Assembly: GCA_046590205.1 (NCBI GenBank)
Contig: JBKJTT010000037.1
Location: forward strand, 5,888 to 69,887
Direction of reading: 5' to 3'
Length of the DNA stretch: 64,000 bases
Source of the DNA: Candidatus Kapaibacterium sp.
Lineage (GTDB): Bacteria > Bacteroidota > Ignavibacteria > Palsa-1295
The stretch's first letter is position 1, and every line of letters begins with the position of its first letter. The position numbers and the translations under genes were made by a program. Below are positions 39,535 through 64,000 of the stretch, one piece after another. Under the pieces are notes generated by a model. It was not told the DNA's origin and made no database searches. It saw nothing but the letters and a program-made list of their open reading frames with translations.

Positions 39535-40233
39535 TTACTTAGTGGTTGTTCTAAGATACTCGCTCGGTTTTGAGATTAGCGCTCGTTTATCACTTGTTGC
39601 AAAGCGCATCCCATCTTCATTTGCTTGCGTATCCCGCTGGTCGTTCACACCGCCGACGATAAACGCCTCTTCGCCTGCTTCAACAAACGAACCGATTAAC
39701 CGAACGAACGAGTTCATCCCCAAAGTTCGCTTCAAATATGCCGAAAGAAAAAAATGCTGCATTTTATCTTTGTCTTCGGTCGAGTCATTATAAACTTTGC
39801 TCGGTAATCTATCGACTCGTTTTGTAAAAATCTCTTCCGGCTCAAAGGTAAGCGGCAATGTGATAGATGCACCAAATAACAGCTTCACTTCAATGACCCG
39901 GTGGTCGAGCGTAGCAACTGCACTCGTTAATTGAGCGGCTTGGAAGTCTCCACGAGAAAGGATGTACGCCTCATCGTAGATATAGTCAAGCTTTTCGCGG
40001 TCAGTCATACCTTTGGCCTCTTCTATATAAATATCACTGCGGATATGATCGCGGAGTTGGTACCCTTCGATGTACCCCTTCGGCGTGAAGAGAGCACCGA
40101 AGAACATGAGCGGAGTTTTGGATTGAGCTTGTGATACTTGTGCAAGTAATAGGGCGGTTAGTAAAGTGAAGTATATTAGATTGCCACGTCGGGCTAAAGC
40201 CCTCCTCGCAATGACAGAAAAAATTGTTTTCAC
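39535..40233 (-). CDS. Hypothetical secreted protein (probable GTG start at 40233)
   Basis: MKTIFSVIARRALARRGNLIYFTLLTALLLAQVSQAQ signal-like N-terminus; DKMQHFF...D..AN.DG motif. Confidence 0.6.
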   Translation of the reverse strand: MKTIFSVIARRALARRGNLIYFTLLTALLLAQVSQAQSKTPLMFFGALFTPKGYIEGYQLRDHIRSDIYIEEAKGMTDREKLDYIYDEAYILSRGDFQAAQLTSAVATLDHRVIEVKLLFGASITLPLTFEPEEIFTKRVDRLPSKVYNDSTEDKDKMQHFFLSAYLKRTLGMNSFVRLIGSFVEAGEEAFIVGGVNDQRDTQANEDGMRFATSDKRALISKPSEYLRTTTK

Positions 40234-46020: not shown

Positions 46021-48090
46021 TTATCGTATCTTCAAGAGCCGCGCATTTATCGCAACAACTATCGTACTTACCGACATCAAGACTGCGCCTACTGCCGGCG
46101 AAAGGATGATGCCCTGCCCAACAAGCACACCTGCAGCAAGTGGGATAGCGATGGCATTATATCCTGCTGCCCATATAAGATTCTGTACCATCTTTCTATA
46201 GGTAGCTCGCGCAAGTGAAATAAGTGCTGCGATATCTTGCGGATTGCTGCGGATTAAAACTATGTCAGCTGATTCGACTGCTACATCCGTACCTGCGCCG
46301 ATAGCAATGCCGATATTTGCTTGTGCAAGAGCCGGAGCGTCATTGACTCCGTCCCCGACCATAGCGACTACCCTTCCCTGTTCCTGCTCACGTTTTACTT
46401 CGCGCGATTTATCACCGGGCAGAACTTCAGCGCGAACATCATCTATCTTGAGTTCGGATGCTACTGTTTGGGCAACAGAGCGGTTATCGCCTGTAAGCAT
46501 GACGGTCTTGATACCAAACGAGCGAAGTGTTTCTATAGCTTTATATGACTCGGGGCGAATTGAATCCGCAAGTGCAAAAGCCGCAGAAAGCACATCATCA
46601 ATGATAAGAAATACAACTGTCTTCCCTTGCTGTATTAGTTGTGATGCTCCTTCAGGAATTGCAATGTTTGATGATATGAGATAACCAGGACTTACAACAT
46701 GGACACTTTTGCTATCAATAACTCCTCGAATCCCTTTTCCGGGAATAGCCGAAAAATCGGTAACGGGCAGATAGGAAGATGTCAGTTCTGCAATTGAATG
46801 TGCTATCGGATGCTCTGAATTCTTTTCAAGCGATGCGGCAATCTGCTCTACTTGTTCTTTACTATAGGCATCATTGAGCACAAGCGTATCTGTTACACCA
46901 AAGTTACCTTCGGTAAGTGTGCCAGTCTTGTCAAGTATGATAGTATTAACATTGCGCACCTCTTCAAATGCCGCACGATTGCGAATGAGTAATCCGTTAC
47001 GGGCAGCGAGTGTCGTAGAAACAGAAACCACAAGCGGCACTGCAAGCCCAAGTGCATGAGGGCAGGAAATGACCATCACCGTAACGGCACGTTCAAGTGC
47101 ATACGATAGTGATACGTCAGATAGAGTAAGCCAAAGTATGAACGTGACTACGCTTGCACTAATAGCAACAATTGTGAGCCAGAATGCTACCCTATTAGCA
47201 AGATCTTGCGTGCGAGAGCGACTTGATTGCGCTTCGCGAACAAGTGCTATAACCTGTGAAAGGAATGTCTCATCGCCTGTCTTATCAATGGTCACAGTTA
47301 TCGCACCATCGCCATTGAGGGAGCCGCCGATAACGCGGTCACCTGCTTTTTTTGAAACAGGTTTTGACTCACCGCTGACAATAGATTCATCTACATATCC
47401 CGAACCACCGGTGATGATACCATCAGCAGGGAATTTCTCACCCGGCTTGACGATAACTCTGTCATTCTTAACAAGTGAACTGATAGCAACTTCTGTTTCT
47501 GCACCATCGGATGAAAGTTTATGTGCAGTAGAGGGAAGAAGCTTCACAAGTACTTCCAGCGCATCGGTCGCCTTTGTAAGGGTTTTCATCTCTATCCAAT
47601 GCCCGACAAGCATGATATCCACAAGTGTAGCAAGCTCCCAATAAAAATCCATTCCTTCAAGCCCGAAGGTAACAGCTACACTATAGAGATATGCGGCAGA
47701 GATGGCAATAGCTACGAGTGTCATCATCCCCGGCTCGCGCTGCGATAGCTCTCGCTTCATTCCGCGAAGGAATGGAATACCTCCATAGATATAGATAACT
47801 GTACTTAATCCGAAGAGAAGGTAGTTTATCCAATTCTCCCCATGAAGCATCTCAAGTCCGATGAATGAGCGAACCGTATTACTGAAATACAGTATTGGAA
47901 CCGTCAGCGCAACAGATACCCAGAACCGGATACGGAAATCAGCAGTGCTGTGCCCAGCGTGTGCATTGTGTCCGGAGGGTGAGTGATGATCCTTATGTTG
48001 GGCATGTCCTTCGAGTGATGGGCTCTTAGCTAAATGATCGTTGTGATCATGACCTTGATGTTCATCATGTGAATGTGTATGGTCTTGCAT
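46021..48090 (-). CDS. copB: Copper-translocating P1B-type ATPase, CopB (P1B-3)-like
   Basis: His-rich N-terminus, CPH, DKTGT, SEHP, GDGVND, YN and MSVST signature. Confidence 0.9.
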   Translation of the reverse strand: MQDHTHSHDEHQGHDHNDHLAKSPSLEGHAQHKDHHSPSGHNAHAGHSTADFRIRFWVSVALTVPILYFSNTVRSFIGLEMLHGENWINYLLFGLSTVIYIYGGIPFLRGMKRELSQREPGMMTLVAIAISAAYLYSVAVTFGLEGMDFYWELATLVDIMLVGHWIEMKTLTKATDALEVLVKLLPSTAHKLSSDGAETEVAISSLVKNDRVIVKPGEKFPADGIITGGSGYVDESIVSGESKPVSKKAGDRVIGGSLNGDGAITVTIDKTGDETFLSQVIALVREAQSSRSRTQDLANRVAFWLTIVAISASVVTFILWLTLSDVSLSYALERAVTVMVISCPHALGLAVPLVVSVSTTLAARNGLLIRNRAAFEEVRNVNTIILDKTGTLTEGNFGVTDTLVLNDAYSKEQVEQIAASLEKNSEHPIAHSIAELTSSYLPVTDFSAIPGKGIRGVIDSKSVHVVSPGYLISSNIAIPEGASQLIQQGKTVVFLIIDDVLSAAFALADSIRPESYKAIETLRSFGIKTVMLTGDNRSVAQTVASELKIDDVRAEVLPGDKSREVKREQEQGRVVAMVGDGVNDAPALAQANIGIAIGAGTDVAVESADIVLIRSNPQDIAALISLARATYRKMVQNLIWAAGYNAIAIPLAAGVLVGQGIILSPAVGAVLMSVSTIVVAINARLLKIR

Positions 48091-48212: not shown

Positions 48213-49658
48213 TTACGTTACCTCTACATTCACCATCATGCCGTCGTCTTCGTGTTCGAGGTTGTGGCAGTGGAACATATAGATGCCTTTGTTTTCGTTG
48301 AAGCGGACTGCTATGCGGACGAACTCGCTGCCGTTAATGAGCACCGTATCTTTCCAGCCGAAGTCATTCGGCTTTAGCGCATCAAAGCTTCTATCTATAA
48401 TCTGAAATTGCAACCCATGTATGTGCATCGAGTGAATTGCATCCCCCTGATTCTCCATCTCCCATATTTCAAGGTCGCCTGCTTTGACGGTATAGTCAAT
48501 ACGATCCATATCAAAGACAAGGCCATTTATCTGATGCTGTCCGTACTCAGCAGTGTGGTTCATTGTGAACTGGAAGTACCTTGTATTCACAGCTTTCGTT
48601 GGGTCAAGCTTTTCGTAGGTGGAAAGAGTTGTGGGGATAGTGTATGAATTGGTATTCGTCAGCTTCACGTCAAAACGAACAAGGTCATGCTCTGCGCCTT
48701 GCGGATAACTTGGGTTCTGATGCGATGAGTTAAATACATATTCAAGCGTCTTTAACTTAACAGAACTGCCAAGGAGATCGCTCTTAAAATCTACTAGCAC
48801 ATCAACTCGTTCACCGGGCGATACTTTTATCTCTGTCATTGGATACGGCTTATCAAGCAAGCCGCCGTCATTTGCGATAAGGTGCATCGTACGCTTATCT
48901 TCAAAGCCGAGCATATAAATGCGAGCATTTGAAGCATTTACAAAACGCAGACGGTAAAGTCCACGCGCAACTTCGTGATATGCGTCAGGTGTACCATTGA
49001 CGAACATCGTATCACCGAGATAACCAGGCGGGATGTCATCGTTCGTTCTATCCCAGATGATTTTATTTGCTGTATCAAGACGTTTATCCTGAAGGACAAG
49101 TGGAATATCGAACTCACGAGCAGGCAGGTTGAGTGCATCCTCTTCGTCATCGTTTACGATCAGCACTCCTGCAAGTCCCATATATGCCTGATAGCCCGTT
49201 CGCATATCAGGATGAGCATGATACCAATACGTCCCTGCCCTATCAACGATAGGGAATGTATAACGTTTGCTCGAACCGGCGGCGGCGGCGTCCTTCGGAT
49301 GACCATCCATATCTGCAGGCACGTTCAAGCCATGCCAATGAATATTAGATAGTTCTGTGAGTGCGTTCGTAAAATTAATATTGAGTGTATTGCCTTTCTT
49401 GATGCGTATCGTCGGACCAAGGAATGCGCCGTTGATAGTAATAACGTTCGACGGAATCCCCCTCCATATATCAACACTTCCCATTGCAGCGATGAATTCG
49501 CCGGAGCCATAGTTGGTAGCTGGAATGCGTAATGCTTGTGAGCCGCGCTTTGGCGTATCAACAGGCGGAATTTCTGAGTCGCATGATGTGAGGAGACTCC
49601 CCGACGTGCCAACAACAGAAAGCGCGCCGAGGGATTTGAGGAAGTTGCGTCTATTCAT
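48213..49658 (-). CDS. Three-domain multicopper oxidase (CueO-like), Tat lipoprotein
   Basis: NRRNFLK twin-arginine signal with LTSC; HWHG, WYHAH, HSMHIHG, HCHNLEHEDDGM all intact. Confidence 0.93.
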   Translation of the reverse strand: MNRRNFLKSLGALSVVGTSGSLLTSCDSEIPPVDTPKRGSQALRIPATNYGSGEFIAAMGSVDIWRGIPSNVITINGAFLGPTIRIKKGNTLNINFTNALTELSNIHWHGLNVPADMDGHPKDAAAAGSSKRYTFPIVDRAGTYWYHAHPDMRTGYQAYMGLAGVLIVNDDEEDALNLPAREFDIPLVLQDKRLDTANKIIWDRTNDDIPPGYLGDTMFVNGTPDAYHEVARGLYRLRFVNASNARIYMLGFEDKRTMHLIANDGGLLDKPYPMTEIKVSPGERVDVLVDFKSDLLGSSVKLKTLEYVFNSSHQNPSYPQGAEHDLVRFDVKLTNTNSYTIPTTLSTYEKLDPTKAVNTRYFQFTMNHTAEYGQHQINGLVFDMDRIDYTVKAGDLEIWEMENQGDAIHSMHIHGLQFQIIDRSFDALKPNDFGWKDTVLINGSEFVRIAVRFNENKGIYMFHCHNLEHEDDGMMVNVEVT

Positions 49659-50408
49659 TTACCGAATGATATTGAACTGCTTCGAGAGCGTTGTGCCATC
49701 AGCAAGCATAAGCACGAGGGAATACGCTCCGTTTGCAAGCGAAGAGGTATTGATCTCATTACCGGTAATAGTACCCGAAAGCATAACTTTACCAACTGCA
49801 TCAATTATCTCAAATGAACGAGGCATATCGCTTGTCGTCTCGATGCGAAGCAAGTTCGTTGCAGGGTTCGGGTAAAGTGTATAGAATGCACTCTTTGCTG
49901 CGTCCATCTTGACGCTTGACTGTGCCAATCCGTTCGAGATTGCTGTCTTCATGGCATCAACCTTCGCACTTGAGAAACCTATGCTTGTATAAAGCACTTG
50001 TTTATCTTGTCCGACAACTGCAATAGTTGGCATTCCCATCTCTCCATAGGGTGCAAGCATCTCTTTGCCGTTAGCAATAACAGGCCACTCACATCCGGCA
50101 TTCGTCTTCCACGTCCTGAGTGCTGCGCATGTCGTCGTATTATTAAAGCTTATCGAAAATATCTTCACTCTGCCAGGGTGTGATTGCTCGAACTCCGCGA
50201 CAACCTGCTTCAACTGACCTGCAGCCGTTACGCAAGGCGAACAGTTCATCATTACAAATTCCATGATAACTATATTGCCGGAGTCACACATATCATAGAG
50301 ACCATAGGTGTTGCCGTCGCAGTCGGCTTTCTGCCAATCCTCGGCTATTGTTTGGGCATTCGCAGATACTGAACATACCAAAAAGAGAACTATAAGTAGC
50401 TGTTTCAT
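49659..50408 (-). CDS. TlpA/redoxin-like thioredoxin-fold protein with T9SS sorting domain
   Basis: Signal peptide, CSPC, GMPT, C-terminal YPNPAT...NGAYSL...KQFNI. Confidence 0.85.
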   Translation of the reverse strand: MKQLLIVLFLVCSVSANAQTIAEDWQKADCDGNTYGLYDMCDSGNIVIMEFVMMNCSPCVTAAGQLKQVVAEFEQSHPGRVKIFSISFNNTTTCAALRTWKTNAGCEWPVIANGKEMLAPYGEMGMPTIAVVGQDKQVLYTSIGFSSAKVDAMKTAISNGLAQSSVKMDAAKSAFYTLYPNPATNLLRIETTSDMPRSFEIIDAVGKVMLSGTITGNEINTSSLANGAYSLVLMLADGTTLSKQFNIIR

Positions 50409-50434: not shown

Positions 50435-51658
50435 TTACTGTACCTTTACAAATCCTTTAGAAATCACGGTCCCATCCTCGAACGTAATATATGCATTGTA
50501 CCTTCCAGATGTTAGCGAACCAATCGGGATAATGAAATGATCCGATTGATCTATAAACTTGGTGTTTAGTATAGATCCCTTCGAGTCTATTATTTCAGAC
50601 TTCTTTATCCTTTTGTCGTTATGTAACAAAACTAATAGATGATCAGATGCAGGGTTCGGGCTAATAGTAATAGACTCATTCTCAGCATGTTTTCGGATAT
50701 GCTTTGATCCTAAAATTGTCACTGGTATAAACTCTTCACCACCTATTGTGTGTGTGTTCATATTAACATACTTGATACACACTGAGTCTTTTAGAGTAAC
50801 TTTGGGTTCAAGCAATACATCGTAGCGTTCGCCAGGGGAAATAAACACAGAATCGGTTCGAAGTTGATTCGGCAGTGGTCTTCCATCGGAAGCAATAACA
50901 GTCGCACCAAGTGCCGCAGGAAAAATAATCACATTATCATAAAAACCGATATTGCCTATGCGAATAAGAATTTTTTCTGAAGCAGTAGCATGTATTGATT
51001 GCATACTGTCTTCAGAAATTTGTTGGCGAGAGCGTCCATTCAAAAGAAAATATTCAGGACGATACAAGGGCAGATGCACTGTATCAACATTCGGGTCATG
51101 CTTAGGAACAGTGTCATGCCATGACTTATCTAACTCCGATGTAAGCCATTCGTATTCTTTGTCAAAAGCGGGACCATCAGTCCAAGCAGTGTTTCGTCCG
51201 TCTTTTGCGCGAACAACAACAAGCCCGTACATCCCCATTTGAACATGAACAACATCTGCCGCATGACAATGATAGAGGAATGTACCCGCATGGTCAGCAA
51301 TAAATGTATATATCGTATCTTGTGCATGCTCGAGCCAAAACGAAGTTGCAGGATCACCGTCATTACGGGTATCTACGTCAAGTCCGTGTAAATGAATAGT
51401 ATGATGATCGCCTTGAGATATACTTTTCGCATTAATAATTACGGTATCTCCTTCATTAGCATAGATTGTTTCTGCCGGAAGAGTAGGTTCAGCAGAGAGT
51501 GTTCTCGCAAATCCGAATATCTTTGTCACTTTTCCATCCCAAAGCGTAATGGTGCCAGTGTTGCTTCGTAAAATAATGGTATAGCGTCGTGTGACTCCTG
51601 CGCAGATAGATACGGTGCAAAGGACAATGAGAAGCAATGTTGCTAACCGAATTCTCAT
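50435..51658 (-). CDS. Two-domain multicopper-oxidase subunit (Cu ligands in domain 1 only) with T9SS sorting domain
   Basis: HHTIHLHG and YHCHAADVVHVQMGM in domain 1; domain 2 has no His motifs; SPNPAS...SGRY...KGFVK CTD. Confidence 0.85.
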   Translation of the reverse strand: MRIRLATLLLIVLCTVSICAGVTRRYTIILRSNTGTITLWDGKVTKIFGFARTLSAEPTLPAETIYANEGDTVIINAKSISQGDHHTIHLHGLDVDTRNDGDPATSFWLEHAQDTIYTFIADHAGTFLYHCHAADVVHVQMGMYGLVVVRAKDGRNTAWTDGPAFDKEYEWLTSELDKSWHDTVPKHDPNVDTVHLPLYRPEYFLLNGRSRQQISEDSMQSIHATASEKILIRIGNIGFYDNVIIFPAALGATVIASDGRPLPNQLRTDSVFISPGERYDVLLEPKVTLKDSVCIKYVNMNTHTIGGEEFIPVTILGSKHIRKHAENESITISPNPASDHLLVLLHNDKRIKKSEIIDSKGSILNTKFIDQSDHFIIPIGSLTSGRYNAYITFEDGTVISKGFVKVQ

Positions 51659-52533
51659 TGTATCGTCATAATAGTAAACATTCCGTTCGGGTGAGTACCT
51701 CCACCTGAAACTGCGACAAGGTTATGGTCATGGACGCTGTATCTTCCTACTTTATCCGGTATGAGCACCAAAAGTAGCGCATCCATCGGCGACATTGGGA
51801 ATGTATCTTTTGATGTACCTACTTGAATCCGAGTTGTTGAACTTTGTATGGCAGTACAATGAAACCCATGAAAATGAATAGAGTGGCTCGATTGCCCTGT
51901 ATTAGCTAAGTATATATATATTGTATCGGAGACTTGTCCGACTATCGTAGCCGAAGAGTCACTTTGAAGATCTGGGAAGCTCTTACCATTGATGGTAAAG
52001 TAATCAGGTTCATAAAATCGCCAATCAACCTCATTCCCACTTGAAAGTATAGTAGAAAATGTTGTACTATGCTCCTTAATGTTCCAATAATACTTTTTCA
52101 CCGGCTGTTTACTCTCGACACATATCATTCCCCCCAAACCGAGATACCGATTCGAAGGATAGTCCGTACTATCATAATAAATGTAGGTACCTCTCTTCTC
52201 GAAATAATATATTCGCGTAAGAGAATCTCCGGCTAGTATTGAAAATCCGCCTCGCCCTTTTACATAAAATCCATGAGCCGTCGTATCTCGATTAACAACT
52301 GTTATCTCAAGAGAATCGCCATCCGCAATAGATACGACAGTATTCGTTGAATTAAATACGGGAGTAGTATTATATGCTAGCGAAGGGAATGTGGTTTTTT
52401 TGACCGTCGTAAACTCACCCCTGTTAATATAGAGAGTCTTCTGTTTCACAACGGCGTATGACACCCTAAATGAACAGAGTAATACTGCCATAACGAGGAT
52501 ACACCTATATAATAACAATATCTTGCCTGACAT
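51655..52533 (-). CDS. Two-domain multicopper-oxidase subunit (Cu ligands in domain 2 only)
   Basis: HSIHFHG and VHDHNL...GTHPNGM in domain 2; domain 1 has AHGFYVKG and YIYYD instead of ligand motifs. Confidence 0.85.
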   Translation of the reverse strand: MSGKILLLYRCILVMAVLLCSFRVSYAVVKQKTLYINRGEFTTVKKTTFPSLAYNTTPVFNSTNTVVSIADGDSLEITVVNRDTTAHGFYVKGRGGFSILAGDSLTRIYYFEKRGTYIYYDSTDYPSNRYLGLGGMICVESKQPVKKYYWNIKEHSTTFSTILSSGNEVDWRFYEPDYFTINGKSFPDLQSDSSATIVGQVSDTIYIYLANTGQSSHSIHFHGFHCTAIQSSTTRIQVGTSKDTFPMSPMDALLLVLIPDKVGRYSVHDHNLVAVSGGGTHPNGMFTIMTIQ

Positions 52534-53289: not shown

Positions 53290-54111
53290 TCAGTAGAATA
53301 CCCGTTCAAACTTAATATAAACCGCATTTGCCGAGCGGTGCGGAGCATTCGAGTACAATGTTGTCTTGAAAGCAAGATCAATACGTGCTATCGAGTTGAG
53401 TATTACTTGAGGACCAACCGAGAGGACAACTTCATTTGCAGTCCCCGGTGTCGCCATATCATGCTCAACAACATTATAACTCCCGTATTTTCCCAATAAT
53501 TCAGCATATATGTTGAAGTTTGGGTCTGAATAACTTACATATTCAGTAGGGTAAACGAGATACCCCGCTGATAATGAATAGTTGTAGTTCGTTATGTTAC
53601 GATATGCAACATGTTCCTCATTTGAGATGTCGGGTATCCCTGCCACTGCGCCGAGAGTTACAGATACCGCAAGATGATCTATCAGAAGCGTTGATATTAT
53701 CCCTCCGCCATACCCCGGCGATGCCCCGTCAAGTCCGACAAGAGGCGATACCCCTTTTTGCGAACCGAAGAGTGCCTTCGCATAGAGTGCCGAGCGGAAA
53801 TGATACTTGAAATCATCATCCGTAAAGAATCGGTACTTTGCATACATACCTGCATTCTCAAATGCGTACGTTCCCAAATGATCAGACGCATATAGCTCGC
53901 CATGAAGCATGATCTCTTTTGATAGACCATACATCACTTCAAACTGCAACCGCGTTCTTACAACATCATCCATAAATGAACCCTCAACAGCTGCTCGCAC
54001 ACCAACCGAACCTTTAGGCATATTGCTTGCTGGTTCAGTGGCAATAAAGAGCTCCTGCGAATATGTATGACTACTAATCACAAGAAATAGTACGATAAGT
54101 ACATACCTCAT
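53290..54111 (-). CDS. Putative outer-membrane beta-barrel protein
   Basis: Signal peptide, TEPASNMPKG, alternating beta-strands, aromatic C-terminus KFERVFY. Confidence 0.65.
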   Translation of the reverse strand: MRYVLIVLFLVISSHTYSQELFIATEPASNMPKGSVGVRAAVEGSFMDDVVRTRLQFEVMYGLSKEIMLHGELYASDHLGTYAFENAGMYAKYRFFTDDDFKYHFRSALYAKALFGSQKGVSPLVGLDGASPGYGGGIISTLLIDHLAVSVTLGAVAGIPDISNEEHVAYRNITNYNYSLSAGYLVYPTEYVSYSDPNFNIYAELLGKYGSYNVVEHDMATPGTANEVVLSVGPQVILNSIARIDLAFKTTLYSNAPHRSANAVYIKFERVFY

Positions 54112-54647
54112 GTACGTATTGTTACGTGATAAAGATGTCCTTCGGTTTTACAGCAGCTCGACGCTATTCCTTTTGTATAGCACTCGAACTTCGTCTTTTT
54201 AGCAAGTTCGCCAAACTCACGTTTATTGACAAATTGTTTGTCAACAAAACGGAGATTGACGGGACCAGAAAGGATTTGTTCTTTCGTGCCGATAAAGTGA
54301 TAGGTATTCCCTGCATATACAAAATGAAAATCTTTCCCAACAGAAGTATTCTCAAAATTGAAAGTAGTCTCTAATGAGCGGACAGAAAAACCTGCGTCTT
54401 CTATCATTTCACGAAGCTCATCTATTTGTACAGTCGAGTTCTTTTTGAAGTTGATCGTTGCTATGAGCTTATTAAGATCGATTGTAACGTTCTCAATAAA
54501 ATCAAGCTGCTTAAGAGATTCTTCAACCCCTTTCGCACACATCGAGCATGTCAAGCCATCAACCCCAACGGTTGCAGAGACGAACTCTGCACGAGCAGTC
54601 AGTGATGCAAATACAAGCATCACTACGGTAATAATCTTTTTTGTCAT
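54108..54647 (-). CDS. Secreted heavy-metal-associated (HMA) domain protein
   Basis: Signal peptide MTKKIITVVMLVFASLTARA, GLTCSMC, C-terminal C-x7-CC. Confidence 0.88.
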   Translation of the reverse strand: MTKKIITVVMLVFASLTARAEFVSATVGVDGLTCSMCAKGVEESLKQLDFIENVTIDLNKLIATINFKKNSTVQIDELREMIEDAGFSVRSLETTFNFENTSVGKDFHFVYAGNTYHFIGTKEQILSGPVNLRFVDKQFVNKREFGELAKKTKFECYTKGIASSCCKTEGHLYHVTIRT

Positions 54648-54709
54648 TGTTATTTCCTTTCTTACAACCCCCTCCACCAAAGCGGAGGGGGTGGAATTAT
54701 GTTATCTAT

Positions 54710-54901
54710 TTACTTCGAGCAAGTACTACCTTCGCTACAGCATGCGCCGTTCGGGCAGTTGCAGTTATCACCGCAGCATGATGCGCAGTCCTTGCAGCAA
54801 CATGCATCTGTTTTTGTGGTAGCGGTTGTGTTCGATGCGAAGAATAAGCCGGCTGCGCCAAGCATAAGTGCTGCTGCAGCGATCATAAGATTCTTTTTCA
54901 T
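54710..54901 (-). CDS. Secreted or membrane-anchored metallothionein-like Cys-rich peptide (63 aa)
   Basis: Hydrophobic leader followed by ACCCKDCASCCGDNCNCPNGACCSEGSTCSK (11 Cys). Confidence 0.75.
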   Translation of the reverse strand: MKKNLMIAAAALMLGAAGLFFASNTTATTKTDACCCKDCASCCGDNCNCPNGACCSEGSTCSK

Positions 54902-55041: not shown

Positions 55042-55434
55042 TTACAACCGGAAAACTTGGTTGCTTAGGTAGATCGGGGGTCCCGAATCAGTGAGGATAG
55101 TTGTCGCTGCTTGATGTGCTATACTTCTATATATAGTAGTTGGCACATCTATAGGGAGAATAACAGCAAGTAAGACGACCGAAGCAGTGTTCGGCTCGAC
55201 TAACAATTTTATTTGGGGTGACGCATTGGAGTTACAGATGTTCTGCGTACAGATGGGGCAGGTGGTTTCCGTATCGGCGCTGCAATGAGATGTCTTCGTT
55301 TCCGGCTTTTCGCAGCAATCAGGGACATTCTGTTTTGCTTCTGTCATTTGGCAGAAAGCCATCGGCGCAGCCGACACCACTCCTGTAAAGAGAAGCGTAA
55401 AAACAAGCAGAATATGTGTGACTTTGCGTACCAC
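55042..55434 (-). CDS. Cys-rich leader protein with C-terminal GPP motif (HYC_CC_PP/DUF2946-like)
   Basis: Signal-like N-terminus, FC..DCC..HC..CPIC..C, C-terminal DSGPPIYLSNQVFRL; first gene of the copper operon. Confidence 0.7.
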   Translation of the reverse strand: MVRKVTHILLVFTLLFTGVVSAAPMAFCQMTEAKQNVPDCCEKPETKTSHCSADTETTCPICTQNICNSNASPQIKLLVEPNTASVVLLAVILPIDVPTTIYRSIAHQAATTILTDSGPPIYLSNQVFRL

Positions 55435-55690: not shown

Positions 55691-56371
55691 ATGAAAAACA
55701 AAATCATAATCATATCGATGCTATTTCTCGGAGCATACTCCCTACTCTCATGTAGCAAGTCAAATAACGACACCGCTAGACTTGAAACGGACTCCTCCAC
55801 CTCACACATGGCACATACAGATCCATTGCATTCGGGATCAAAGCAGATGGATCATCCGAGTATGCACTCAATGGCTGGTACGATGGCAAAAATGGACAAT
55901 CTAAAAATGACAGGTGACTATGATCTTGACTTCGTCAACATGATGATACTTCACCATCAGGCAGCGATCGACATGAGTGAAGTAGAGGTTGTCAATGGAA
56001 CAGATGCAAAGGTAAAGACTATGGCGCAGAATATCATCTCTGCACAAAAAGCCGAAATAAGTCAGATGCAACAGTTTGCAAAAAGCTACAAGATGCCAAA
56101 AACAAAATCCAGTATGTCTGAAATGCACAATGAGTTTAGTGAGATGATGCGAGAAATGAGGGACTCAATGAAAAACATGCACATGAGCGGCAATGTAGAT
56201 AAGGATTTTGTAATGATGATGATCCCTCACCATGAAACAGCACTTACCATGGCTGAGGCGGAGTTAAAGCATGGTAATCAATCACAAGTCAAAAAGATGG
56301 CAAAAAAGATGATCGTCGATCAAACAAAGGAGATTGCTGAATTCAAGGTATGGCTCTCCACCTTAAAGTAG
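55691..56371 (+). CDS. DUF305 (CopM-like) Met/His-rich lipoprotein
   Basis: Lipobox LLSC; DLDFVNMMILHHQAAIDM and DKDFVMMMIPHHETALTM repeats. Confidence 0.9.
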   Translation: MKNKIIIISMLFLGAYSLLSCSKSNNDTARLETDSSTSHMAHTDPLHSGSKQMDHPSMHSMAGTMAKMDNLKMTGDYDLDFVNMMILHHQAAIDMSEVEVVNGTDAKVKTMAQNIISAQKAEISQMQQFAKSYKMPKTKSSMSEMHNEFSEMMREMRDSMKNMHMSGNVDKDFVMMMIPHHETALTMAEAELKHGNQSQVKKMAKKMIVDQTKEIAEFKVWLSTLK

Positions 56372-56455: not shown

Positions 56456-57460
56456 CTACATCTTGATAAACCGACCAGTTGAGACATTGCCATTTCTATC
56501 ACGGATAGTAACAAAGTACATCCCACTCGGCAATTCACTTACTACAATCTCATTTTTCCCTTCTGAAATAGCCAAAGTCCTCAATTCTATGCCATTAACA
56601 TTGCTAATGACAACTATCCCCCGCTCTTCTGCTTCGATGATGAGTTTGTCTGTGACGGGGTTGGGGTAGAGGGAATGTAAGGACAAGTTATCATTCCTGA
56701 CAAATAGTGGAGGTAATTGATTGCCAAAGGAAGTTTTGAGCGTAACCATGCAATCTTCTGTAACTATAAACATCCAATAATGTCTGTAATCACAACTAGT
56801 GCTGTTACATCTCCAAGCATAAGAAAAAGTAACTATAAAGCCCGTATCTGACTTCTCCGCATGTAACCAATGTTTTTCAGTATAAAATGGTAAAGCCCAA
56901 CTACAAAATTCAACTCCTTCTAAACTGCTGATTTTATTTGCCAACGCTATCGCATTGCAATCATCTTTCGTCTTAAAAAATATAACTGCAATGGAATCTT
57001 GACCCGGATACTGAACTAAATCGTAGAGACTAATACTATATTGCTTGTATAAACTATCGAACACGACATTGCCGGTAGGAAATTGTTTTTGGGCTAAACG
57101 TTTACACCAATTATATGTGGTATCTACATTCATGTAAAATTCGTGTAGAGCTACTGATTGAGACTGATGAACTGAATCAGTATAATGAGCGACCTCTGCT
57201 CCAAAAAAAGGAAGGGCATTCTTAACTGCCAAGATTGCACCCAACATTAAGTCAGCTCTTTGCATCGGTATATCCAGACTGTCTTTATAAAAAGGATTAA
57301 TGCGATAGAATGGATCGAAAATAGCTGACCAAGCCGCATCCGCCCGATACAACTCCTTCACCGAATCAGGAGCATCACATGAGGATGGGACGGTATGGGC
57401 TGATGCGAGTGATGCGAGTGATGCGCATACGCAGAGGAAAAACACACATACTACTTTCAT
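56456..57460 (-). CDS. Hypothetical secreted protein with T9SS sorting domain
   Basis: Signal peptide; LYPNPV...LPSGMYFV...RFIK. Confidence 0.8.
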   Translation of the reverse strand: MKVVCVFFLCVCASLASLASAHTVPSSCDAPDSVKELYRADAAWSAIFDPFYRINPFYKDSLDIPMQRADLMLGAILAVKNALPFFGAEVAHYTDSVHQSQSVALHEFYMNVDTTYNWCKRLAQKQFPTGNVVFDSLYKQYSISLYDLVQYPGQDSIAVIFFKTKDDCNAIALANKISSLEGVEFCSWALPFYTEKHWLHAEKSDTGFIVTFSYAWRCNSTSCDYRHYWMFIVTEDCMVTLKTSFGNQLPPLFVRNDNLSLHSLYPNPVTDKLIIEAEERGIVVISNVNGIELRTLAISEGKNEIVVSELPSGMYFVTIRDRNGNVSTGRFIKM

Positions 57461-59002: not shown

Positions 59003-59613
59003 CCTTATAACATACGGGTTTCAGCGGAAGTGAGAACCTAAAGTGAGAACCTATCCCATACTTTTCTGTATCCTGAACTAACCCTAATACTTCAATTTTT
59101 CCGTCAAATTTGACATTGGAATTGACTTGTATTTTGGGTGATTCTTCCGTACCTTTGAACAGCGAAGCGATTAATGATGGATACCCTTCTTTCATTTTGA
59201 CACTTCGGTATTCAGATATGGCACTAAATCGGTAGTTCTACCAATGGAGTAGATAGGAGATCGTAGGAAGAGATGGTACATCGTAGCCCATTTCACTGTC
59301 ACCCTACAACACTGTCCGTATCTTTGAGGAGCAAAGCGACAAATGGAGGAATACACCCTTTTGTTCGTCTCTTTGCAAGTTCTTACATAGAATATCAATA
59401 ACTTAGTCTATTAGTGCGCATTAGTACCAATTCGCTCTAATAGATCGAAAGTTCTTGGATTTTGAAGAATTTCTTCGTATATTGAGGAGCAAAGCGACGA
59501 AATAAGAAAAGGGGGGAGTCCCTATTCTTGATTCAGAGCTTTTGCAACAGGTAAAAAGGACATATAGCCGTAGTAGCATTTCACAGGATGATGAATGGAT
59601 AATTCTGAATCCT

Positions 59614-60870
59614 ATGTCTAAATACGTGAAAGCTACAAATCCCTTTGAGATCGAAGGGCGGGCATGTTGGTATGTAAAAATTACCAATACGGACCCTGAT
59701 ACCGGACGCAAAAGACACCTAAAAAAGACCACAGGCGTTCGTGTTGACGAAAAAGACTCTTATAAAAAGGCACTCGAAGCAGGGCTAAAGGTGCTTGCTA
59801 AGTACCAGACTAACTTTGATCCTTCCTCTCCTAACAGACTTCGTGACTTTGCCGAAAACTATATAGCCGAACGTGAAGCCGAAGGACTCTCTGCACGGAC
59901 CATTGAAGATATTAAGAATACATTCAATGCTTTCATTTTCTCACAAGGGGCAACTGTGTTCATCTCACAGATTAGCGGAAGAGATGCACGGACATTTCTT
60001 TTCAAAGAACAAAAGTCCGGGTTCTCCGCAAACAGGCATTTTAAGTATCTTCGTACTGCATTTAATAGGGCTGTACGAGATGGACAAATACCCTCAAATC
60101 CGTTCGATCAAATTGATACGAAGGCACTTCGTAAACGAATGAAACCGCGTCCGCGTGGACTTCTTACTTCCGAAGAGGTAATACAAATATTTTCATTAAT
60201 GCCAAAAGCATCATTTGCAGAACGAACGTATGCAAACTTCTTTCTCTTCCTTTATGGGACTGCATTCCGAAGAGGTGAAGCATGTTTTCTCGAAACAAAA
60301 GACTACAGCTTTAACGAAAGGGTTATCCGTGCCGTAGATAAGGAAGAACACTCGCTAAAAACAGAAGCATCACAAGGTGAGATACCAATGATTTCGTACT
60401 CTGAATTGGCATTAAAAGAACAGCTTAAAAACAAAAACCAACACAAAGACGAACGTATCAGAGAGTCCCGGTATGTGTTCTGCAAACGGGAAGGTGAACA
60501 TTATGACCCCGAAACATTAACGTGTGCCATACTAACTCGTGTTCGTGCCGTATGCAAGCTATTAGGTATTAATTCTAATGGGGTTGACTTACATTCACTC
60601 CGGCACTCCCTTATTCAACATCTTATTGATAGTGGAGTTGAGCCAATTACTGTATCTAAACTTGCAAGGCATGAAAATCTTAGTACCACTCTGAATTTCT
60701 ATCATAAAACAAAAGATACCCATGCTAAATTTGAAGCAGTTCTTCGAGTTACGGACCAATTTCCATTACCTGTATCTGTAGTTAAGCCGGAAGGCGTTTC
60801 AATGTTTATTGATGCTACACTCCGAGAAACGAAAGTAGTCATACCTGAATATGAAGGGAGCGTAGTATGA
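59614..60870 (+). CDS. Tyrosine recombinase/integrase
   Basis: SAM-like domain (GLSARTIED, LRTAFNRAV...NPF); catalytic R (TAFRRGE), K (LKT), HSLRH, H (ARHENL), Y (NFY). Confidence 0.92.
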   Translation: MSKYVKATNPFEIEGRACWYVKITNTDPDTGRKRHLKKTTGVRVDEKDSYKKALEAGLKVLAKYQTNFDPSSPNRLRDFAENYIAEREAEGLSARTIEDIKNTFNAFIFSQGATVFISQISGRDARTFLFKEQKSGFSANRHFKYLRTAFNRAVRDGQIPSNPFDQIDTKALRKRMKPRPRGLLTSEEVIQIFSLMPKASFAERTYANFFLFLYGTAFRRGEACFLETKDYSFNERVIRAVDKEEHSLKTEASQGEIPMISYSELALKEQLKNKNQHKDERIRESRYVFCKREGEHYDPETLTCAILTRVRAVCKLLGINSNGVDLHSLRHSLIQHLIDSGVEPITVSKLARHENLSTTLNFYHKTKDTHAKFEAVLRVTDQFPLPVSVVKPEGVSMFIDATLRETKVVIPEYEGSVV

Positions 60871-62184: not shown

Positions 62185-63789
62185 CTAAAACATCCCTTCC
62201 TGTCCTGTCTGTTTTTTACTCTTACTTGCTTTCTTGAAGGTTGCGGCTCCGAGTGAGTAGTCTTTGTATTCGGGACGTTCGGTTTTGTTTAGCAGCCCTT
62301 CAATCGTTAGTATCTGTACTTTGGGTACAGGTGTATTGCCGGGGGATTCGTAAAAACCCTCTTTGATCGCTTCCTTTCGCATAGGGTCCGTAGGGGCTGC
62401 TAAGGTAACGAATAACCCCATCTCTGCTTTTTCCCGTTCTACAACGTGTGCTAAGTCACGGACCATTGACACAGAGACGTTCTCTCCACCTTTAACCGAT
62501 ACAACGATCTTCTTTGCATCCCCGGTATCATCATGGAAGAATATGAGTCCATCAATTCCACCATCTGATCCTTTCTTCTTTCCCTGATAGGGTTGCGCTC
62601 CTACAAGCGAACATGCCCACCATTGGAACTGGTATTTGTCCCGCTCTGCAAGATTACGCGCTCCATCCAAATCTTTCGGCGTACCCTCTACATCAAACTC
62701 GATAGTAGGGAAAGCATCCCGCAACCGTTTTTCTATGAGTGAGATTGCAAGATGGGTAATGTCTATTCCTATCCATTTACGGTTTAGCTTTTCGGCTCCA
62801 TGAACAGCCGTACCACAACCACAGAACGGATCAAGAACTACATCCCCTTCATTTGATGATGCTTGTATGATACGCTCTAATAATATAAGCGGCTTTTGGG
62901 TCGGATAACCAATTGATTCATTACCACTAACAAGTTCTATGTCATTCCAAACATCATCAACAGGAATCCCTTCCTGTTCATCTAAGAAACGCTTGTAACG
63001 TGGAATTCCTTTTCCACCTCTTGGTACTATGATGTTACCTTTCCTATCCTCTTCCATCATACGATCTCTTGTCCATCTCCATACTTTAGTCACACCCTTA
63101 AACTCGTAGGTAAGATTAGGACGGTCCGGGTTTGGATTTAGTAAAGAAGTCAGTTGATAATACCTTCCATTTTCATCTTTCAAAGAGTATTGTTTCTTGA
63201 CTCTTTCAGGATCGTATGCCTTATATGAAGGATTCCATTTTGTTTTTGAAGTGTCTTTTGCATATCCTAAAATTACATCATGGTTATTTGCAAAACGAGT
63301 AAACGCCTGCCCTTTTGGGTGCGAACGTCTCCATATAATCTCATTTCGATAGTTCTCTTTTCCAAATACACCATCTAATACTATTTTGAGATAGTGAGAT
63401 GCAGTTGGATCACAATGGAGATATAGACTCCCTGTATCTTTCAGAACGCGGTGTAATTCTATGAGACGGTTTGCCATCATTACGAGGTATGCCATCATGT
63501 CATTCTCTCCTAAGAAAGAACGAAGGGCACGGACCATCTCTGCAACTTCGGTATTTGACTGTGAAAGTATCTCTCTATACTCCCGTTCAGCTTGTTCACC
63601 CCAATGCCATGAATCCTCAAATGCCGTTATCTGTGCATCAGACGTATGCCCCTTCGGGGTTTTGAAGAGGACGTTATAGTCCCGTTTCGAGTTGAACGGC
63701 GGATCAAGATAGATAAGGTCAACTGACTGGTCCGGGATATGCTCCCGTAAGATATGCAGGTTATCCCCGAAAAAGAGTTGGTTTGTCAT
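62185..63789 (-). CDS. N6/N4 DNA methyltransferase (beta class) fused to a C-terminal restriction-endonuclease-like domain
   Basis: LIYLDPPFNS, YPTQKP, DPFCGCGT; C-terminal DGGIDG...VVSVKGG, VRDL. Confidence 0.9.
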   Translation of the reverse strand: MTNQLFFGDNLHILREHIPDQSVDLIYLDPPFNSKRDYNVLFKTPKGHTSDAQITAFEDSWHWGEQAEREYREILSQSNTEVAEMVRALRSFLGENDMMAYLVMMANRLIELHRVLKDTGSLYLHCDPTASHYLKIVLDGVFGKENYRNEIIWRRSHPKGQAFTRFANNHDVILGYAKDTSKTKWNPSYKAYDPERVKKQYSLKDENGRYYQLTSLLNPNPDRPNLTYEFKGVTKVWRWTRDRMMEEDRKGNIIVPRGGKGIPRYKRFLDEQEGIPVDDVWNDIELVSGNESIGYPTQKPLILLERIIQASSNEGDVVLDPFCGCGTAVHGAEKLNRKWIGIDITHLAISLIEKRLRDAFPTIEFDVEGTPKDLDGARNLAERDKYQFQWWACSLVGAQPYQGKKKGSDGGIDGLIFFHDDTGDAKKIVVSVKGGENVSVSMVRDLAHVVEREKAEMGLFVTLAAPTDPMRKEAIKEGFYESPGNTPVPKVQILTIEGLLNKTERPEYKDYSLGAATFKKASKSKKQTGQEGMF

Positions 63790-64000
63790 TACGCAAAAAT
63801 ACAACAATACTTGACACATTTATCCCTTTTTATAGTGTCGGATTTGTCGGGTTTTGGAGGGGGAGATATTTTCCGCCGGAAAATATTACACTAATGGCAG
63901 TCCTTTTCTTATGTCATATTTGCTCCAATCCATGTGGTTGCTTAACGTCTGTTGGATTCCGATAGTGTTGAGGATAGGATAGATACGGTCCGCTTTCCTT

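Follow-up and report, generated by a model that had tools for sequence, protein, structure and literature searches.

Adjacent paralogues of a type C two-domain multicopper oxidase with complementary halves of the predicted copper ligand set

INTRODUCTION

Domain duplication as a route of enzyme evolution has a textbook example in the multicopper oxidases. The Nakamura-Go scheme reportedly starts with homotrimers that hold three inter-subunit clusters and ends with single-chain enzymes that hold one; the path needs stages with unequal interfaces, and we know of no natural one that has been characterized. Here, we describe two adjacent genes, A and B, in a 64,000-nucleotide (nt) stretch of contig JBKJTT010000037.1 of Candidatus Kapaibacterium sp., a member of the Bacteroidota from soil, the whole of which stretch is referred to as the window. 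Each gene encodes a two-domain relative of the type C multicopper oxidases, and each product keeps the half of the putative copper ligands that the other has lost. We consider it probable that A and B are paralogues with reciprocal ligand loss that form one shared trinuclear copper cluster at an A-B interface, most likely in a 1:1 complex. The pair had been noticed in an earlier reading of the DNA letters, here called the original prediction, and all of its expectations that computation can address were borne out.

The closest described relatives of the two proteins are type C oxidases, namely, the blue copper oxidase of Nitrosomonas europaea (PDB 3g5w) and the metagenomic oxidase mgLAC (PDB 2zwn). 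Each of these bears twelve ligands on one polypeptide, with an HxxHxH motif and an HCH..H..M motif in domain 1 and with HxxHxH and HDH motifs in domain 2, and forms a homotrimer with three clusters. In a 2026 paper (PMC13151041), two-domain oxidases are described as trimers whose cluster is held by residues of two protomers, and type C is defined by a type 1 (T1) copper site in the N-terminal domain. A and B share with 3g5w and 2zwn the two-cupredoxin fold, the colinear layout, the N-terminal T1 site, and these four motifs; in both cases, the cluster lies, or for A and B would lie, where domain 1 of one chain meets domain 2 of another. However, in A and B the ligands are split across paralogous chains, only one type of interface would be able to hold a cluster, and export is predicted to proceed through the Sec pathway and the type IX secretion system (T9SS).

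Other systems resemble the pair in part. Ceruloplasmin, one of the six-domain oxidases, has all of its domains on a single chain, together with three T1 sites and a cluster between the first and last domains; it derives from two-domain units, has lost all but one of the inter-unit clusters, and retains the decayed interfaces as structural ones. A natural A-B fusion described below likewise connects domain 2 of one unit with domain 1 of the following one, whereas A and B are two chains of four domains with one T1 site, and their cluster would lie at the very junction that the fusion bridges. With CueO, PcoA, and CopA, the pair shares a predicted content of one T1 site and one trinuclear cluster made of 4 + 4 histidines from two cupredoxin domains, as well as a copper-resistance setting, but those oxidases are single periplasmic chains exported by the twin-arginine translocation (TAT) pathway, and A and B are two distinct chains of two domains each. 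The Mnx complex of Bacillus is a hetero-oligomeric multicopper oxidase, composed of a complete oxidase and small unrelated partners. Mnx and the fungal NLAC/POXA3 laccases are hetero-oligomeric like the predicted A-B complex; in neither is a catalytic cluster known to be common to paralogous chains. The NLAC/POXA3 laccases (PMC10443355) are heterodimers of a complete large-subunit oxidase and a small unrelated subunit. Finally, Nmar_1354 of Nitrosopumilus maritimus is presented in PMC11761707 as an alpha-alpha-alpha' "heterotrimer" (PDB 9cck). Related to A and B in both sequence and fold, it is a two-domain oxidase with nonidentical chains in its crystal trimer, but these chains, according to that paper, come from one gene, differ by the loss of an extra cupredoxin domain, and each keep a full ligand set.

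The original prediction was aware of no characterized example of such a pair, and our search agrees with it: a heteromeric two-domain oxidase with split ligands was not found in the open-access literature, a search outside which supplements fell, including the 1200-sequence tree and alignments of PMC13151041. Nor did the open-access literature yield a study of a multicopper oxidase as a cargo complex of type IX secretion.

RESULTS AND DISCUSSION

A and B are whole-gene paralogues related to type C oxidases

Gene A (51655-52533, minus strand; 292 amino acids [aa]) encodes two cupredoxin domains behind an N-terminal signal peptide but no sorting domain, while gene B (50435-51658, minus strand; 407 aa) encodes a signal peptide, two cupredoxin domains, and a putative C-terminal T9SS sorting domain, as read from the open reading frames (ORFs) and Pfam matches. 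The Pfam domains of B are Cu-oxidase_3 (residues 58-152), Cu-oxidase (200-286), and Por_Secre_tail (332-401), and those of A are a weak Cu-oxidase_3 (87-143) and Cu-oxidase_2 (182-273). The ORFs and the junction, caATGAga, are as the original prediction had them: the stop codon of A and the start codon of B share 4 nt, with TGA and ATG overlapping as ATGA (51655-51658, minus strand). The gene upstream of A, which encodes a 236-aa protein (C236), ends in a TAA that directly abuts the ATG of A. With one abutting and one overlapping junction, C236, A, and B thus form one tightly packed unit. The genome from which the window comes holds a single A-B pair. No RNA sample was listed as carrying the stretch.

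In a sequence search against all PDB chains, the best relatives of B were 3g5w (E 3.6e-17) and 2zwn (E 1.5e-15), and those of A were 2zwn (E 1.4e-13) and 3g5w (E 9.5e-09). The AlphaFold2 model of A had a mean predicted local distance difference test (pLDDT) score of 94.0 and a predicted template modeling (pTM) score of 0.89, and its top Foldseek matches were 3g5w_A (query TM-score [TMq] 0.74, 288 columns) and 2zwn_A (TMq 0.73). Model and matches together indicate that domain 1 of A, which the original prediction called degenerate, is still a well-formed cupredoxin. The family profiles of A and B aligned colinearly over 284 columns (hhalign probability 99.6%, E 4.4e-23, 20% identity), which argues that A and B are whole-gene paralogues. 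Overall, both A and B are relatives of the type C two-domain multicopper oxidases, and the relationship proposed in the original prediction is upheld by the sequence matches, the fold matches, and the alignment of the ligand positions given below.

Two other assignments were considered and rejected. For B, a nitrite reductase (NirK) reading is contradicted by a score of 46 bits against the NirK equivalog model TIGR02376, whose cut-off is 296.3, and by the presence of oxidase-type HxH and HCH pairs; the same model gave no match to A. The three-domain CueO/PcoA type was discarded for both proteins, each of which has two domains and no twin-arginine leader; the CueO model scored B at 41.8 bits against a cut-off of 525.

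The putative copper ligands are divided between A and B

The putative ligands of B lie in domain 1, which bears a T1 set and four cluster histidines. In the motif HTIHLHG (residues 86-92; 51383-51403, minus strand), H86 is a putative T1 ligand and H89 and H91 are putative cluster ligands; in the HCH-x5-H-x4-M motif (residues 130-143, HCHAADVVHVQMGM; 51230-51271, minus strand), H130 and H132 would serve the cluster and C131, H138, and M143 the T1 site. The first motif aligns to HTIHWHG of 3g5w and 2zwn, and the second aligns to YHCH...H..M in 3g5w. Domain 2 of B is ligand free. The putative ligands of A lie in its domain 2, as four cluster histidines: H220 and H222 of the HxxHxH motif HSIHFHG (residues 217-223; 51865-51885, minus strand), which aligns to HAMHSHG in domain 2 of 2zwn, and the two histidines of HDH (residues 268-270; 51724-51732, minus strand), which aligns to HDH of 2zwn and 3g5w and in which Asp replaces the Cys of T1-bearing domains. 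Domain 1 of A has neither a cluster set nor a T1 set and reads AHGFYVKG at residues 86-93 and YIYYD at residues 117-121. In the PDB alignments, the other two motif sites are occupied by nonligand residues in domain 1 of A and domain 2 of B. The absence of histidine motifs from domain 2 of B is as the original prediction described it, and every motif that it quoted was found at the position given.

Since domain 2 of 2zwn carries the same motifs as A, the sets retained by A and B add up to the canonical 4 + 4 cluster histidines plus one T1 site, in agreement with the original prediction. Neither A nor B has all eight cluster histidines on one chain, and the pair together does; the T1 set in the N-terminal domain is complete in B and not in A.

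The same division was found in the two protein families. At an E value of 0.001 or less, 399 relatives of A and 1613 relatives of B were collected, the latter figure taking in other oxidases. Among the best 120 of the 399 relatives of A, the pattern H..H.HG occurred in 120/120, HDH in 119/120, and HCH in 0/120. Among the best 120 of the 1613 relatives of B, H..H.HG and HCH..H..M both occurred in 120/120, and HDH in 3/120; the B list includes an A-B fusion, P0182, which contains the HDH of A. In the alignment of the A family (119 sequences), H217, H220, H222, H268, and H270 do not vary, and the conservation of D269 is at least 90%; in that of the B family (118 sequences), H86, H89, H91, H130, C131, H132, H138, and M143 are all invariant, and the putative ligands in the two B motifs singled out in the original prediction are thus fixed throughout. 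The invariance of the ligand columns in both families rules out that the split is due to chance. In addition, 41 loci with A homologues were read residue by residue, including the paralogous lost sites, and the same split was seen wherever the sites were covered, with no intermediate ligand forms among the 41 loci. These reciprocal losses, together with the colinear alignment of the two families, favor the duplication with complementary degeneration that had been proposed. The split-ligand arrangement is, at the level of sequence, real and widespread in uncultured Bacteroidota, and from it we infer a function.

The original prediction has to be amended in two details. For domain 2 of A, it had listed HSIHFHG and HDH together with HPNGM (residues 281-285); the first two are invariant, but H281 of HPNGM is not fixed, position 281 being H, Y, P, or A across the loci. 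This variation suggests that A lacks a T1-like site. No Cys ligand occurs anywhere in A, where D121 and D269 occupy the Cys positions. For domain 1 of A, the loss of the ligand set holds, but two residues of the old sites are retained. H87, which is profile-aligned opposite H91 of B, is invariant in the 119-sequence alignment and is R in loci L044/L045; D121, opposite C131 of B, is invariant in the same alignment and in all covering loci. B also keeps an invariant H111 and H181.

A homologues are nearly always followed by B homologues

The 41 loci with A homologues comprise 5 from the genome collection, 4 from genomes of the same order, and 32 from metagenomes (L021-L052). Pairing could be judged in the 35 loci with at least 200 nt beyond the stop codon of A, and in 34 of these a B homologue lies directly after A on the same strand. 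The expectation that homologues stay adjacent and are not commonly single is thus borne out. The 34 A-to-B loci show a 4-nt overlap (21 loci), a 1-nt overlap (5 loci), a gap of 2-17 nt (5 loci), or a single ORF (3 loci), so that stop and start codons overlap in 26 of them. The number of independent loci is somewhat below the nominal one, because near-duplicates are included (L044/L045 and L049/L050).

Among the 34 other genomes of the same order, the same 4 hold A and B, which lie there on the same contigs. Of 400 other genomes sampled evenly from the phylum, none held A or a ligand-bearing B; two distant B-like genes were all that this sample yielded. Given these distributions and the single copy in the genome of the window, the pair is a patchy accessory unit whose halves travel together.

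In one locus (L026, whose product is identical to P0182), a single frame runs from a complete A, through its end (...HPNGMFLIMDM), across a 20-residue hydrophilic linker into mature B. B has lost its signal peptide, and neither of the other two frames stays open across the junction. As judged from the sequence, L026 is a genuine in-frame A-B fusion whose product would unite A and B in a single exported chain. P0241 (689 aa, 61 member sequences; L044/L045) also looks like a fusion but was rejected: the frame shifts within eight consecutive G residues, and the frame that follows holds a normal C terminus of A, a stop codon, and the signal peptide of B. The eight-G frame shift lies at about positions 6740-6800 of L044/L045 and may reflect either an error in sequencing or a genuinely slippery homopolymer.

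A further 15 metagenome loci, which are weak matches to canonical oxidases, were kept outside the 41-locus set. L053-L061, L065, and L066 are high-G+C metagenome contigs with canonical type C-like two-domain oxidases that carry twin-arginine leaders, among them the canonical relatives in L053-L061 with which the Sec-type leaders of A and B may be compared. The domain-1 motif in L053-L061, L065, and L066, HSIHFHGFH, is letter for letter the domain-2 motif of A.

A modeled interface joins domain 2 of A to both domains of B

A complex of mature A (residues 28-292) with B trimmed of the sorting domain (residues 22-325), each supplied with its family alignment, was modeled; A+B was the only pair so treated. 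The complex scored 0.95, and the best of 3 controls scored 0.51. The pass mark of the tool is reached by 58/80 solved complexes and by 2/110 mismatched pairs, counts that are only a rough guide here because custom alignments were supplied. The three runs share at least 99% of their contacts, with a partner pLDDT of at least 94, and both chains have a pLDDT of 92-95. A contacts B through domain 2 only, and its contacts include H217, H220, H222, and residues 269-273. The contacts of B in domain 1 include H89, H91, 94-106, and 134-140, and those in domain 2 include 192-199, 238-241, 257-266, 272-277, and 300-304, which cover the invariant DSDGRP, PGER, and NMNT motifs. The predicted interface between domain 1 of B and domain 2 of A thus appears in the model, with ligand histidines of both chains among the interface residues. 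The model supports, but does not show, that domain 2 of A binds domains 1 and 2 of B.

The modeled interface is also more conserved than the rest of each protein. Conservation was 0.771 at the interface and 0.635 in the rest of A (p 0.0004 against random sets) and was 0.792 and 0.677, respectively, in B (p 0.0012). With the ligands removed, the p values were 0.0028 (A) and 0.0018 (B). Within domain 1 of B, the interface was more conserved at p below 0.0002.

The same cluster could instead sit in a closed heterotrimeric ring, A2B or AB2, which would contain one full cluster, one orphan half-site, and one empty interface. Such a ring would follow the trimeric build of the known two-domain oxidases, with their cluster between protomers (PMC13151041), and the otherwise unexplained invariant residues H87 and D121 of A and H111 and H181 of B could serve a second interface in it. 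Nevertheless, we regard a ring as unlikely. The faces it would need are unconserved, the B equivalents of the donor face scoring 0.578 versus 0.715 for the rest of the protein and the A equivalents of the acceptor face 0.616 versus 0.667; the coupled translation in 26 of 34 loci and the 1:1 natural fusion fit equal amounts of the two chains; and a strictly conserved half-site would be wasted. The unconserved paralogous faces, the coupled translation, and the fusion therefore favor a 1:1 heterodimer that would have a single cluster and a single T1 site.

Export of the pair

The sorting domain of B (residues 332-401; 50456-50665, minus strand; Pfam PF18962 and NCBIfam TIGR04183) scores just below the curated cut-offs, with 26.3 bits versus 27 for PF18962 and 18.7 versus 23 for TIGR04183, and PF18962 is carried by most of the B relatives listed. 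No sorting domain was found in A by Pfam. The claim that only B has a sorting domain thus stands for A and, for B, comes with these marginal scores. The host genome encodes the T9SS protein SprA (TIGR04189) in a 2421-aa frame, which scores 604.6 bits, or 740.1 with its in-frame neighbors, against a cut-off of 200. A sorting domain is assigned to three of the four module proteins, A being the exception.

The leaders of A and B, read by eye, are of the plain Sec type, which implies that both proteins must fold and load copper outside the cytoplasm. It is possible, if somewhat doubtful, that the pair is an obligate 1:1 four-domain heterodimer with its sole cluster between two polypeptides and that it is exported whole and loaded with copper, with A hitchhiking on the sorting domain of B. 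Were this so, the pair would be a present-day equivalent of the intermediates that have been proposed on the way from homotrimeric two-domain oxidases to ceruloplasmin, the laccases, and other single-cluster enzymes, and A would apparently be the first piggyback cargo described for type IX secretion.

At face value, a sorting domain on B only would place the two proteins in different compartments, and A and B might then act apart as coregulated proteins, B as a blue-copper carrier or partial copper site at the surface and A as a copper binder in the periplasm. The single locus in which A has no adjacent B (L030, discussed below) also points this way. We consider separate action improbable, however. 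Four cluster histidines are invariant in each protein, yet a half-site has no known function; pairing is near universal and the genes are coupled; the natural fusion places both proteins on one exported chain; and the modeled interface is confident and conserved.

A shared cluster as the probable mechanism

In the shared-cluster reading that we prefer, A and B would descend from one type C two-domain multicopper oxidase gene, with the two copies having lost complementary halves of the ligands. Coupled translation would supply both chains in step and in equal amounts. After crossing the inner membrane through Sec, the two proteins would fold and take up copper in the periplasm, where domain 2 of A (H220, H222, H268, and H270) would dock on domain 1 of B (H89, H91, H130, and H132), buttressed by domain 2 of B. 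The eight histidines could then jointly form one trinuclear copper cluster. Electrons would pass from the substrate to the blue T1 copper of B (H86, C131, H138, and M143) and on through the H130-C131-H132 triad to the cluster, at which O2 would be reduced. Such a complex would hold four coppers, as a three-domain laccase does, spread over two chains and four domains. The sorting domain of B may direct the complex, and A with it, through the type IX system to the surface of the cell. The weakest link of the scheme is the job of the enzyme, which may be the oxidation of Cu(I), or of another reduced metal, outside the cell; Cu(I) appears the likeliest choice given the copper-resistance island that surrounds the pair.

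Several points weigh against this scheme. First, the pairing has an exception: in L030 (3367-4582), an intact A is not followed by B, and an unrelated kinase-like (sugar-kinase-like) ORF begins in the available 340 nt downstream. Second, the listed contacts of the model do not include H268 of A or H130 and H132 of B, and the geometry of the eight histidines is deduced from a copper-free model that gives no coordinates. The pass itself may merely reflect likeness to the solved homotrimeric two-domain oxidases, and one of the controls reached 0.51. Within single domains, the conservation tests are weaker for domain 2 of A (p 0.09) and domain 2 of B (p 0.034). The 1:1 stoichiometry is no more than the likeliest one, as the known two-domain oxidases are trimers and two types of chain cannot fill a ring of three chains symmetrically. 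Third, to our knowledge, there is no precedent for piggyback export through the type IX system. Fourth, the substrate is guessed from the neighbors, and only some loci have copper genes near the pair. Finally, members of the lineage can persist without copper chemistry, as ligand-less B-like proteins in two genomes indicate. In L068 (genome G123, 1050-2436) and L069 (genome G343, 1429-2816), the B-like two-domain protein (313 aa) retains none of the copper ligands and lacks a sorting domain; the gene beside it encodes a C236-like protein that shares the W-D-x-S-x-C...C motif, and no A-like gene lies in the fetched stretch of either locus. The two genomes belong to one genus, and the arrangement looks like a copper-free offshoot of the module.

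These ligand-less proteins paired with C236-like proteins, and the immunoglobulin (Ig)-like surface protein C236 that accompanies the module, would suit a pair that is an oxidase relic, kept as a noncatalytic copper-sequestering or structural surface protein, but this is very improbable, as the T1 site and the eight histidines are kept without exception in about 240 sequences of 37-60% identity, and a full ligand set is the signature of a working redox site rather than of a relic.

Implications of a split ligand set

If the shared-cluster reading is true, the A-B pair, with its hundreds of Bacteroidota relatives, would be a natural case of the unequal-interface stage that the evolutionary path requires, and the fusion in L026 would show the next step along it. 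A cluster whose halves sit on separable proteins would be a clean system in which to study cluster assembly and the delivery of copper outside the cytoplasm, and the pair offers a direct test of whether the T9SS carries a preassembled hetero-oligomer. There is also a caution for annotation, in that both genes are labeled "multicopper oxidase" and neither would be able to be one alone.

The module neighbors and the surrounding copper island

The product of the gene upstream of A, C236 (52534-53244, minus strand; 236 aa), combines a signal peptide with an Ig-like beta-sandwich, in which C81 and C86 are conserved, and with a T9SS sorting domain. The AlphaFold2 model of this protein (pLDDT 90.4) gave only generic beta-sandwich matches in Foldseek (TMq of 0.43 or less), Pfam at an E value of 10 found the sorting domain only, and the protein atlas matches were to unnamed Bacteroidota clusters at 0.87-0.90. 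A C236 homologue lies upstream of A in 27 of the 30 loci in which this could be judged. C236 was considered as a third subunit of a ring and set aside as not obvious, because it has no recognizable cupredoxin. In L030, two C236-like genes lie upstream of A.

On the other side of the pair lies a redoxin gene (49659-50408, minus strand), whose product is a thioredoxin-fold protein (AhpC/TSA, ResA-like, with the motif CSPC) that also bears a T9SS sorting domain (Pfam and NCBIfam). A redoxin homologue occurs in 9 of the 21 loci with at least 1600 nt upstream of A. Beyond it are genes for a TAT-exported CueO-like three-domain oxidase (48213-49658, minus strand) and a copper P-type ATPase (46021-48090, minus strand), both assigned by Pfam and NCBIfam. 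B matches the CueO-like neighbor at E 5.4e-8, and the two are not close in sequence. Homologues of the ATPase are found near the pair in L009, L012, and L020. The ATPase of the window opens with a histidine-rich stretch, in place of or before the usual CxxC metal-binding domain.

Upstream of C236, a gene for a 273-aa protein with a signal peptide, a C-terminal aromatic residue, and no family match (53290-54111, minus strand) is followed in coordinate order by one for a secreted HMA/CopZ-like protein (54108-54680, minus strand; Pfam and NCBIfam); homologues of both also lie beside the pair in L018. The 273-aa protein could be a small outer-membrane barrel, and its gene overlaps the end of the HMA gene. 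Two small secreted cysteine-rich proteins without a family match come next, one of 63 aa (54710-54901, minus strand) with a dense Cys cluster resembling a metal-binding peptide and one of 130 aa (55042-55434, minus strand) with homologues beside the pair in L018 and L019. The edge of the island is marked by a Met/His-rich DUF305 protein (55691-56371, plus strand) and a 334-aa protein (56456-57460, minus strand) with a T9SS sorting domain and an N-terminal part of unknown type.

About 7 kb farther along, immediately outside the island, lie a tyrosine recombinase gene (Phage_integrase; 59542-60870, plus strand) and a gene whose product combines a DNA methylase with an Mrr-type endonuclease domain (62185-63819, minus strand). 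No tRNA gene was found between positions 40000 and 64000 of the window. The region of the recombinase and the methylase-endonuclease is likely the border of a mobile element, and the surroundings of the module look like a mobile copper-resistance island. The G+C content is about 0.41 in the module, compared with 0.45-0.48 to its left.

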